In this document: positions 1-8,223 of the stretch, piece by piece
Numbering within the stretch: the first letter of the stretch is position 1
How the letters are laid out: each line of letters opens with the position of its first letter
Assembly: GCA_951813565.1 (NCBI GenBank)
Contig: OX638351.1
Coordinates: 4,704,001-4,768,000, forward strand
Direction: 5' to 3'
DNA length: 64,000 bases
Source: an uncultured Poribacteria bacterium
Lineage (GTDB): Bacteria > Poribacteria > WGA-4E > WGA-3G
Made by a program: the position numbers and the translations under genes
Notes under the pieces: generated by a model
What the model saw: only the letters and a program-made list of their open reading frames with translations
Told to the model about the DNA's origin: nothing
Database searches by the model: none

Positions 1-760
1 TAAAATAACCTTCAGCATCAGTTAAGCAACTTGTTCCGTGGGACCCACTGCCACCGCCAAACTCACCGCCTCGATATCGCATGGAGAGGTTTGCGTTGGC
101 ATTAGCAAGAGGAGTACCATCAGCATAAACAATTCGCGCACGTATCTTAAGCCGTTTCTTGACGGTAATTTTTACGTCTTCAATGTTTACACCCGGCTTA
201 AGTCCAAACGTAAGTCCACTAAAAGGAAACGGTCCCTCCTCTATAGAGAAAAAAGTGACCTTATTGAGTCGAATGGAAACAATTTGTATTTCTGACTCTC
301 TGGGAAGTCTTATAATACCCCGTTGAATCTGTTGTTGTCGCAATTGTACTTGTGGCGGTATGTTGAGATCAATCTTCTCATTTGGTATTACCAAAGTTTT
401 AGGAATTGCTATTATTTGCACGGGCCCCGGTTGGATACCGGTAACGCTGAAGGATCCTTCTGAATCAGTTTCTGCTCTGGGTATGACCGGAGGTTTGTTT
501 TTGCCTTCCAGTTGTTCTGCTAAAAAAAGTGGAAACCCGCCTATGGGGTTAGCCATTCCATTATGGACTTGCATAGGTTGAATCATGAACGTGAACCCAC
601 TCATAGGTTTTCCATCTGTGTCTACAACTTTTCCTGATAATCCACTTAATGCTTTTTCATTAGGTTCTGCAGGCGGTTCTTGGGCAACAATCCCTGTTAC
701 AGTGAATAATAGTACCACTGCAAGTGCTATAAGTTTTGCTGAAGTGTAGATGCATTTCAT
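1..760 (-). CDS. Secreted carboxypeptidase-regulatory-like (transthyretin-fold) repeat protein, partial (runs off window start)
   Basis: Not in the ORF track because it has no stop in the window. ATG at 760 with GGGAG RBS; translates MKCIYTSAKLIALAVVLLFTVTGIVAQ...LSGKVVDTDGKP...ETDSEGSFSVTGIQPG...RARIVYADGTPLANA...TDAEGYF; paralogous to 792..2075. Confidence 0.8.
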   Translation of the reverse strand, partial: MKCIYTSAKLIALAVVLLFTVTGIVAQEPPAEPNEKALSGLSGKVVDTDGKPMSGFTFMIQPMQVHNGMANPIGGFPLFLAEQLEGKNKPPVIPRAETDSEGSFSVTGIQPGPVQIIAIPKTLVIPNEKIDLNIPPQVQLRQQQIQRGIIRLPRESEIQIVSIRLNKVTFFSIEEGPFPFSGLTFGLKPGVNIEDVKITVKKRLKIRARIVYADGTPLANANANLSMRYRGGEFGGGSGSHGTSCLTDAEGYF

Positions 761-6592: not shown

Positions 6593-7630
6593 CTAATGCA
6601 TATCTACAGAAAAAATATAACTGAGAATCGTCACCAAAATATAAGTTCCGACCAAAATGACACCAAACGGACGCTTCAATTGGCTTCCTGAAACGAAGAT
6701 GCCGATTCGGAAAACAATCAAAATAAACACCATCGCAGGAAAAAGAAACTGGAAAAATTTTCCTGATGCTTGCAAACCAATAGGTGTTGCAGCAGCTGAA
6801 ACTCCAGCAACAAAGAGAACATTCAGAATATCCGCACCAATGATGTTTCCGACTGCTAACTCACCATGTCCGCGCCGAACTGCTGTTATTGCTGTTACAA
6901 GTTCTGGTAGCGATGTGCCAAACGCGACAAGTGTTGCTGCAATGATTTCCTCTGGCACATTAAACCTAATTGCAAGGGTCTTCACAGTTGGAATAAGGAT
7001 TTGTGCAGCAATAACAACAATTGCAATTGACCCAATGAGTTTAAAAAGTGTAACAAACGTCCTAGACCCATCCGGTTCTGTTTCTTCATCGTGTTCAGAA
7101 GTAGGTGTTATTGAACCTGCCCATCGGATAGACTGCCAGATATACAACCCTAACAGCACAACAAAGACGAATCCCATAAATTGTGAAAGTACACCGCCTT
7201 GTTTAAAAACTTCCATCGGGGAAGACCAAGGAAAACAGGCTAACACCATGAGAATTCCGGCACTTACCTGAACATTGGACAACCGCGATGCCAATTCACG
7301 GTTAAAAGACAGTGGTGCAATCAGCGATGCTAATCCTAAAATTAAACCCGTATCACATATAATTGAGCCAACAGCATTTCCGAGGGCGAGTCCCGGCTCT
7401 CCTTGGACTGCCGACAGCACGGAAACCGCAGCTTCGGGCGTTGTTGTGCCGATACTCACAATTGTTGCACCAATAACCGCCTCACCTAAGCCCCATCGGG
7501 ATGAAAGCACCACTGCTTCATCTACTAACCAGTCCGCTCCTTTGCCAAGTGTGTAAAGCATCACTGCAACGATAAGAAAAAGGACTACGCTCGGTAATCC
7601 TACAATAAGTTGTTCAATCCAATGTTCCAT
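6593..7630 (-). CDS. Ca2+/Na+ (CaCA, YrbG-like) antiporter
   Basis: Two alpha repeats: GATIVSIGTTTPE/GNAVGS and ATLVAFGTSLPE/GNIIGA; about 10 TM helices. Confidence 0.92.
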   Translation of the reverse strand: MEHWIEQLIVGLPSVVLFLIVAVMLYTLGKGADWLVDEAVVLSSRWGLGEAVIGATIVSIGTTTPEAAVSVLSAVQGEPGLALGNAVGSIICDTGLILGLASLIAPLSFNRELASRLSNVQVSAGILMVLACFPWSSPMEVFKQGGVLSQFMGFVFVVLLGLYIWQSIRWAGSITPTSEHDEETEPDGSRTFVTLFKLIGSIAIVVIAAQILIPTVKTLAIRFNVPEEIIAATLVAFGTSLPELVTAITAVRRGHGELAVGNIIGADILNVLFVAGVSAAATPIGLQASGKFFQFLFPAMVFILIVFRIGIFVSGSQLKRPFGVILVGTYILVTILSYIFSVDMH

Positions 7631-7724
7631 TAACTATAAATGTTCCTTCCAATCTGAAGATTATATAGACAAAGGTTATCACAGACACCGCACAAAGTCA
7701 AACAATAGTCCTATGTTTTTTAAC

Positions 7725-7754
7725 TTGAAATTGTGGGTACGAAGATGGTATCCT
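7725..7754 (+). promoter_or_regulatory. Sigma-70-type promoter for the mini-tmRNA-like gene
   Basis: TTGAAA (7725-7730), 18 bp spacer, extended -10 TGgTATCCT (7746-7754), about 14 nt upstream of G1. Confidence 0.6.
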
Positions 7755-7768
7755 TGTACTATCAATAT

Positions 7769-7851
7769 GGGGGTGAAAGGATTCGACGGAGGACGAAAGC
7801 GTGGTTGCTTTCAATTTTCTCCGGATGTGGGTTCAATTCCCACCACCTCCA
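7769..7851 (+). ncRNA. tmRNA-like RNA consisting of the tRNA-like domain only (no mRNA-like domain)
   Basis: 5' GGGGGTG-AAAGGATTCGA-CGGAGGA; 3' TTCTCCG-GAT-GTGGG-TTCAATT-CCCAC-CACCTCC-A. Perfect 7-bp acceptor stem with G3-U70 and discriminator A, T arm, stemless D loop; P2 capped by the hairpin GAAAGCG-TGGT-TGCTTTC. Confidence 0.85.
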
Positions 7852-8223
7852 TTTGAGTAAGTTGCCACACTTCAACTGATTGCTTCCCTCGCTTCCAACA
7901 CCTTCGCAACAACTGGATTTTTATACAGATACTTGGCTCAGAAAATGCGTATTTTGTGGATAGAATTGAGGTTAGATATGAATAGACGTATCTGTGTTTA
8001 TATCAAATATGATAACATTTCACTTTGCGAATTTGCAATGTGATTTGAGTGTAGGGGTTTCTTATGGCGAAATTCGGAGAGTGTTATCTTGTAGATAGAT
8101 TTATGGTATGGTTACGAAAAAGAAGAATGGACAATCTAACCTGATTATGATGGGCTTTTGCAGTCCTCAAAAAAGTTATTTGGTTTGTAATATTGGGTTC
8201 ATGACTTGCTAGAGATCAAAAAC

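Follow-up and report, generated by a model that had tools for sequence, protein, structure and literature searches.

What does a tmRNA do for a cell when all that it has is a tRNA-like domain (TLD)? The question is raised by a short gene of an uncultured Poribacteria bacterium, a sponge symbiont, located within the 64,000-nt stretch of DNA analysed here (the window, Table 1). A preliminary description had proposed a stand-alone mini-tmRNA of 83 nt, and the unit lies in the window exactly as written there. The Rfam tmRNA model (RF00023) matches it end to end (64.4 bits, E 8e-23; gathering score 47), and in this alignment 17 nt stand in for 304 internal positions of the model. ARAGORN, run over the window, reported no tRNA, no tmRNA and no tag, which argues that the RNA has neither a tag ORF nor an anticodon arm. 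The proposed lack of an mRNA-like domain was therefore borne out.

The structure claimed beforehand is also the minimum free energy (MFE) fold (−35 kcal/mol, z = −3.17; 1 of 200 shuffles folds equally well). Its acceptor stem has 7 bp, G3:U70 included, and is followed by a discriminator A; the D-loop (GGAUUCGAC) has no stem, P2 has 7 bp, the linker is GAU, and the T arm is made up of a 5-bp stem and the loop UUCAAUU. From the D-loop to the T arm there are only P2 and a cap hairpin of seven pairs, six Watson-Crick and one G.U, with no pseudoknot ring (PK1-PK4). CCA is not encoded, A73 being followed by TTT. The halves stand in the standard 5'-3' order, as one closed molecule, and not in the order of a two-piece (permuted) tmRNA. 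With a complete TLD, a P2 closed by a short hairpin, a length in the range of ~60-90 nt and no tag frame, the RNA belongs to the TLD-only forms.

Table 1. Annotated features at the mini-tmRNA locus, with positions counted in the window
Feature	Position	Strand	Evidence
Na+/Ca2+ exchanger family membrane protein, 345 aa	6593-7630	-	PF01699, E 2.7e-53
Promoter-like site	7725-7754	+	Consensus scan; position kept in relatives
Mini-tmRNA gene, TLD only, 83 nt	7769-7851	+	Rfam tmRNA, MFE fold, covariation
Mini-tmRNA acceptor 5' strand	7769-7775	+	
Mini-tmRNA D-loop	7776-7786	+	
Mini-tmRNA P2 5' strand	7787-7793	+	
Mini-tmRNA cap hairpin	7795-7812	+	
Mini-tmRNA P2 3' strand	7817-7823	+	
Mini-tmRNA linker GAU	7824-7826	+	
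Mini-tmRNA T arm	7827-7843	+	
Mini-tmRNA acceptor 3' strand	7844-7850	+	
Mini-tmRNA discriminator A	7851	+	
PLP-dependent decarboxylase 3'-end remnant: stop and last 13 codons, VVAKVLEAREAIS	7872-7915	-	tblastn/blastn

Other identities for the unit were rejected. It is not a tRNA-Ala gene, as indicated by the missing ARAGORN call and by the scores of the genome's true tRNA-Ala genes on the tmRNA model, which reach 30.8-32.4 bits against 64.4 for the mini-tmRNA. A scan had flagged the cap hairpin plus AAUUUUCU as an internal terminator. We discounted this, since beyond the flagged site both the P2 3' strand and the T stem covary with their partners.

The promoter proposed upstream of the gene stood in part. 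A promoter-like motif is present, with TTGAAA as −35 (7725-7730), an 18-nt spacer ending in TGG, and TATCCT as −10 (7749-7754), and its 3' end lies 14 nt before G1. As a single match it is unremarkable and no better than shuffles, with 2 sites found where 2.4 would be expected. What is kept, however, is its position. The pattern TTGnnn-16..19-TAnnnT, ending 4-16 nt before G1, occurs in 21 of the 24 distinct upstream sequences of the relatives, 19 of them with the TG extension; in the control, 110 of 5000 random 70-mers of the window passed the same test.

Could the short form be a full ssrA that collapsed during assembly? Logan contigs from four runs in two studies, which may include the source sample, span positions 7500-8100 unbroken, with 0-1 differences, 0 indels and no joints. 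The short form is present also in 21 other species assemblies. Together, these observations rule out a collapse.

The preliminary description had proposed a functional RNA and not debris, and our comparison with relatives agrees with this. A covariance model (R1) built from 21 distinct mini copies gives 110.3 bits to the copy in the window, and 22 of the 40 genus genomes, the own genome counted, yield a single copy each, with 96-112 bits. Across 151 sampled genomes of the phylum, strong R1 matches were restricted to the genus, where 21 of the 37 sampled members and also the own genome have one. In the 21 distinct sequences, 99.0% of the cells pair in the named structure, compared with 42-70% when partners are slid by 1-3 columns, and two-sided changes were found at six pairs, compared with 0-2 in the slid controls. 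The covariation score is 0.182 against a shuffle mean of 0.113, and none of 500 shuffles reaches this value. The compensatory pairs lie in P2 (three, for example A-U to U-A in eight sequences), in the cap hairpin (two) and in the T stem (one), so that TLD-only homologues with covarying P2 and cap, which the preliminary description had advised to search for, do exist. RNAalifold independently predicts the same structure. The acceptor stem, G3:U70 and A73 are unvarying in 20 of the 21 distinct sequences, and the D-loop and T loop in all of them; P2 and the cap vary.

Divergence points in the same direction. The p-distance between intact copies is 0.090, with 0.198 for the neighbouring gene. Between intact copies and decayed remnants it is 0.458 (neighbouring gene 0.222), and among remnants 0.311 (neighbouring gene 0.116), the remnants thus diverging about five times faster. 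Covariation in P2, cap and T stem, slow divergence compared with the remnants, and the kept promoter position support the mini as a functional RNA gene, probably under purifying selection and ancestral in the genus. This conservation, together with the decay where selection apparently lapsed, argues that the form may have a cellular function of its own.

A further detail of the alignment concerns the loop of the cap hairpin, UGGU (7802-7805), which is identical in all 21 distinct sequences, with varying stem pairs next to it. UGGU can pair with the ACCA 3' end expected of the mature mini-tmRNA, or of any tRNA with discriminator A. Given the 92% mean identity of the alignment, this complementarity may be chance.

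The gene sits at a conserved locus, marked by the exchanger gene, which lies upstream of the mini in most relatives. Downstream are genes for a DegT aminotransferase, GluRS and GlnRS, so the flanks are housekeeping genes, not phage genes. In the relatives, a PLP decarboxylase (PF00282) of ~490 aa runs convergent with the mini, a gap of 21-26 nt separating its end from the mini 3' end. It neighbours the mini locus in 36 of the 40 congeners and is deleted in the window genome, where tblastn and blastn match the tail alone, homology ends at 7915, and a search elsewhere in the genome gave no match for the decarboxylase. After this tail, in the region 7852-8223, follow ~300 nt without an ORF of at least 60 aa. 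The mini is intact here despite the deletion, and is therefore independent of the decarboxylase. The conserved 45 nt after the mini were rejected as a message in trans or another conserved element, being the decarboxylase tail only.

The decarboxylase allowed us to examine 36 loci in the genus, with the own genome, G001, G006 and G024 left out for want of a decarboxylase match. Nineteen loci have an intact mini, five a decayed but recognisable remnant (G005, G021, G043, G050, G053), one only a displaced 3' fragment (G051, with an intact mini elsewhere), and eleven have nothing. Altogether, the mini is absent in 18 of the 40 congeners, including the single-contig genomes G005, G009 and G021. 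We built a tree from decarboxylase DNA (quick search in IQ-TREE, rooted at the midpoint). Its root has intact copies to either side, all five remnants group in a single clade (SH-aLRT 100), and at least four state changes are needed. None of 16 outgroup loci from the same family holds a mini, a remnant or a tmRNA (best R1 score 10.1 bits with filters off; no nhmmer match at E ≤10). A complete tmRNA at this position was thus found in none of these relatives. The simplest reading is that the mini arose once at this locus, before the genus diversified, and was then inherited vertically under purifying selection, with probably three to four losses.

Traces of insertion were seen at some of the loci. 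In G017 (C1, ~4004650-4005200, L017/L245), the mini 3' end recurs as an exact 25-nt direct repeat 462 nt downstream, immediately ahead of the decarboxylase. In G051 (C3, near 32600, L239), only the 3' 33 nt of the mini are found beside the decarboxylase; the intact mini of this genome is 2.49 Mb away, beside a truncated second decarboxylase copy. Insertions of 137, 210 and ~1840 nt were found in G002, G052 and G158, respectively. The repeat in G017 and the fragment in G051 suggest that the mini 3' end functions in the manner of a tmRNA attachment site. The mini itself is not a displaced fragment left by island integration: its 5' half, D-loop and promoter rule this out, and true 3' fragments, as in G051 and G017, look different.

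G158 (Poribacteria, 7.3 Mb) has two minis (L165 and L170, at G158:C1:846310-846395 and 1999836-1999921). Its decarboxylase is 80% identical to the query, with values of 76-81% in sister genera and 81-100% within the genus. One mini is convergent with the decarboxylase but 1.84 kb off, the gap holding ORFs with SWIM and LamG domains; on its other flank are two ORFs, one resembling a type I restriction subunit and one YgjP-like. The second mini has cas6 and cas1 as its neighbours; its first base is C1, so that the first acceptor pair is broken.

Does the mini replace the tmRNA of the cell? The genome, a single contig of 5.43 Mb, has one full ssrA (G000:C1:2195363-2195715; 178 bits with Rfam, 350 nt with ARAGORN, tag ADQELALAA), which directly follows the only smpB (G000:C1:2194919-2195332; a single PF01668 match of 184.7 bits). 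Both had been suggested as genes to look for, and both are present. A second smpB, which might have been dedicated to the mini, was not found in the PF01668 search of the genome. Two genes of the CCA-adding/poly(A) polymerase family and an RqcH-type NFACT_N homologue are also encoded. An ArfB-sized protein with an RF-1 domain was not found, the only two matches in the genome lying in frames of ~365 aa, the size of RF1/RF2. Within the genus, 37 of 40 genomes have a full ssrA (163-202 bits). It is present in 19 of the 22 mini-bearing genomes, and the other three are drafts (G013, 140 contigs, 81% complete; G019, 170 contigs, 95%; G008, 80 contigs, 84%), which indicates that the mini does not replace the tmRNA. 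The mean Rfam score of the resident ssrA is ~181 bits in mini-bearing and ~190 bits in mini-lacking genomes, these groups being clades and not independent. An ARAGORN call of a permuted "tmRNA*" that overlaps a tRNA-Ala in L004 was regarded as a false positive, with only 30.8 bits on the Rfam model.

The mini and the resident ssrA share the acceptor stem (GGGGGUG/CACCUCC), the P2 start GGAGG, G3:U70, A73 and the lack of an encoded CCA. They differ in that the mini has no resume codon, no tag frame, no stop codon and none of the pseudoknots; an 18-nt hairpin takes the place of ~270 nt in a canonical tmRNA. Furthermore, the mini D-loop is 2 nt shorter, its T stem has U-A instead of C-G, and the linker between P2 and the T stem ends in U or A in the minis (GGAU/GGAA), compared with C (GGAC) in the resident ssrA and the Rfam consensus. 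The shared acceptor stem and P2 start, with differences in D-loop, T stem and linker, fit an old ssrA duplicate that would have undergone an internal deletion; a phage source may be possible as well.

Short tmRNA-like forms were also detected outside this family of minis. Several congeners, though not the window genome, carry multiple copies of a second family, ~68-nt RNAs resembling a tmRNA head (L281-L287; for example G044:C58:4906-4976, G043:C50:11924-11994, G051:C3:2722697-2722767 and G049:C3:6957-7027, and three copies in G003). They have a GGGGGAG or GGGGGUG acceptor stem with G3:U70, a T arm, and a D-loop unlike that of the mini. Upstream is a TATAAT box, and an inverted repeat of leader and trailer (aaccgctgaacacct ... 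aggtgttcagcggtt) is followed by a T run. These RNAs score 44-48 bits on the Rfam tmRNA model and 30-37 bits on R1, with no ARAGORN call. A tmRNA-like form of 102 nt is found in another Poribacteria family (L273, G138:C185:7795-7896; Rfam tmRNA 66.9 bits, R1 48.3 bits); it encodes CCA, its middle part measures ~60 nt, and its T loop has 6 nt.

More distant bacteria have such forms too. In a Candidatus Saccharibacteria MAG of 0.5 Mb (L164, G154:C12), a 73-nt TLD-only RNA with encoded CCA (1501-1573, +; 76.8 bits) is the only tmRNA match above the Rfam gathering score, and smpB (2143-2700, -) lies ~570 nt from it. Either this organism has a tag-less tmRNA only, or the MAG contains a deletion. A Lentisphaerae MAG (L166, 65.9 bits) and Phycisphaerales UBA7800 (L167/L103, 51.1 bits) have a TLD-only form plus a full ssrA. 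The Phycisphaerales mini is probably prophage-borne, because it is identical to a mini from a viral contig (L194). In an Achromobacter MAG (L163), the mini alone was found (91.2 bits).

In viral contigs the form is common. A pattern scan returned 65 loci, at 51 of which the RNA is TLD-only, 60-86 nt long, and has a perfect 7-bp acceptor stem that contains G3:U70. Of these 51, the 39 that were compared with R1 align to its positions 1-83 with 35-58 bits, as do 5 bacterial TLD-only RNAs among the matches listed. The cap-hairpin pattern of the Poribacteria type had no match in the viral contigs, and a blastn search of 50,697 phage records yielded nothing beyond T-arm matches of 20-30 nt (E 0.2-0.7). 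On these grounds, a phage origin traceable by sequence was rejected.

What, then, could the mini do? AlaRS, EF-Tu, SmpB and the enzymes that process and modify tmRNA have the TLD as their common target, S1 is the only known tmRNA partner that does not bind it, and the structure of a ribosome-bound TLD-SmpB-EF-Tu complex has been solved (PMC3968760). A TLD-only molecule is reported to inhibit tmRNA strongly, "perhaps by titrating SmpB", and to do so "whether or not chargeable" (Mao 2009, as cited in PMC4131195). With a chance that we put at about even, the role of the mini in trans-translation is that of a competitor or modulator, which is charged with alanine and binds SmpB. It would be transcribed separately and matured like a tRNA, with the 5' leader cut off and CCA added. 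AlaRS would charge it with alanine via G3:U70 and A73, and SmpB would bind at the elbow of D-loop and T-loop. Maturation, charging and SmpB binding are to be expected because the mini keeps every TLD element. Since the cell has one SmpB, the mini would compete with the full tmRNA for it, as well as for EF-Tu and the empty A site, and the tagging of products from stalled ribosomes would be throttled or diverted.

Several points speak against a competitor. The gene appears to be dispensable, given the inferred losses in the genus and its absence from three single-contig genomes, and it would be odd if a cell retained its own inhibitor of an important rescue system. The U or A of the mini linker, where the resident ssrA has C, might also affect SmpB binding. 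In addition, the invariance of the acceptor stem and of the alanine identity elements exceeds the needs of a pure SmpB sponge, since inhibition was described as independent of charging. This invariance in 20 of 21 sequences, with P2 and cap varying, suggests that charging and delivery matter, beyond SmpB binding. It would be explained by productive rescue without a tag, an unlikely but serious alternative, in which the alanine-charged mini enters the stalled ribosome with SmpB and EF-Tu and accepts the nascent chain. The chain would leave with one alanine, or with several after repeated rounds, instead of ADQELALAA, and would be released by drop-off and peptidyl-tRNA hydrolase, or by another factor. 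Mitochondrial and some plastid tmRNAs that lack a tag frame and yet are kept together with SmpB (PMC11915505) make such a role conceivable, as does the RqcH homologue in the genome. However, the mini offers no stop codon for chain release, no ArfB-sized RF-1 domain protein was found in the genome, and with the full tmRNA kept in nearly all congeners a second rescuer is not obviously needed. In a broader form, which we consider only tentatively, the mini could constitute a second, cell-encoded branch of trans-translation free of tags, either as a rescue that adds only alanine(s) or as a rheostat that sets the tagged share of the products.

Explanations outside of trans-translation are considerably less probable. 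The mini might serve as a landing pad (an attB decoy), where integrases that target the tmRNA 3' end would insert and spare the essential ssrA. Although the scars in G017 and G051 and the insertions in G002, G052 and G158 would agree with this, we find it improbable, as an att site requires just ~25 nt of the 3' end, which leaves the compensatory changes in P2 and cap, the invariant 5' acceptor strand and D-loop, and the promoter position unexplained. Very improbable, and disfavoured by the comparative data, is a functionless relic, either of a phage or island gene or of an internally deleted ssrA duplicate. TLD-only RNAs are indeed frequent in viral contigs, and 18 congeners lack the gene. 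Yet the five copies of the lapsed-selection clade are at a p-distance of 0.46 from the intact copies, compared with 0.09 among the latter, housekeeping genes flank the locus, the cap hairpin of the Poribacteria type had no match in viral contigs, and phage minis stay far below the R1 scores of the genus copies. We give just as little credence to a different partner in place of SmpB, such as RNase R or some other nuclease, that the mini would bind or titrate. This idea draws on ~90-nt TLD-containing tmRNA fragments recovered together with the phage protein AcrIIIA1 on purification, such RNAs binding RNase R (PMC11662646), and on the two G158 copies, of which one is flanked by cas6 and cas1 and the other has a type I restriction subunit nearby. 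The latter context is anecdotal, however, coming from one genome when neighbours elsewhere are mostly housekeeping genes, and nothing in these data links the mini to RNase R. Competition for SmpB, with the doubts named above, stays our working model.

So far, TLD-only tmRNAs have been regarded as a curiosity of phages, published for a single case, or as a trait of reduced organelles. The mini, in contrast, is a normal chromosomal gene, apparently kept by selection for the lifetime of a genus beside a complete tmRNA-SmpB system. Its intact, decayed and absent states in 40 congeners form a natural comparative series for the role of a tmRNA without a message. If a tag-free branch or a rheostat is real, its role could be tested by comparing congeners in which the gene is present, absent or decayed. 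There is also a practical side. Short tmRNA matches are routinely dropped from genome surveys as truncations or deletions, and the methods of a tmRNA database discard truncated forms and those with large internal deletions (PMC11915505). Our results suggest that annotation pipelines should not reject short forms outright. The matches listed include further bacterial candidates.

The preliminary description had named the mini as without a described bacterial equivalent, and in this respect it has to be corrected, as viral contigs commonly carry the form and published cases exist. The tmRNA of mycobacteriophage DS6A is listed as "TLD only" (Hudson, Lau and Williams 2014; PMC4131195; tmRNA Website tmID 11587), and a 2025 database paper reports tmRNA forms of ~65 bp without a CDS from Mallomonadaceae plastids, and names two bacterial groups as possibly lacking tag frames (PMC11915505). 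In the literature considered, no cell-encoded, vertically inherited TLD-only copy beside a complete tmRNA was found. The TLD-only form itself is thus already known, and a cellular, inherited copy that is co-resident with a full tmRNA is apparently undescribed.

The closest counterpart in architecture is the DS6A RNA (JN698994, 28478-28557), which aligns with R1 from end to end (38.5 bits, E 4e-9). In both RNAs, the acceptor stem has 7 bp, the D-loop lacks a stem and a short P2 is capped; both have a T arm, and both are free of message and pseudoknots. The DS6A RNA is, however, a phage gene, has no close sequence similarity to the mini and falls below the Rfam tmRNA gathering score. The mini is above this score, lies on a chromosome among housekeeping neighbours, and occupies one locus across the genus, where it appears to be vertically inherited. 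Furthermore, unlike the DS6A RNA, it has its own conserved promoter position and resides together with the ssrA and smpB of the cell. The tag-less tmRNAs of organelles resemble the mini in being TLD-like, in lacking a tag frame and in being kept with SmpB (PMC11915505). No match of the mini to the mitochondrial tmRNA model (RF02544) was listed, the Rfam clan keeping the best match alone. Mitochondrial tmRNA genes are usually permuted, whereas the mini is co-linear. Finally, in organelles the tag-less RNA is the sole tmRNA, whereas the mini coexists with a complete one.
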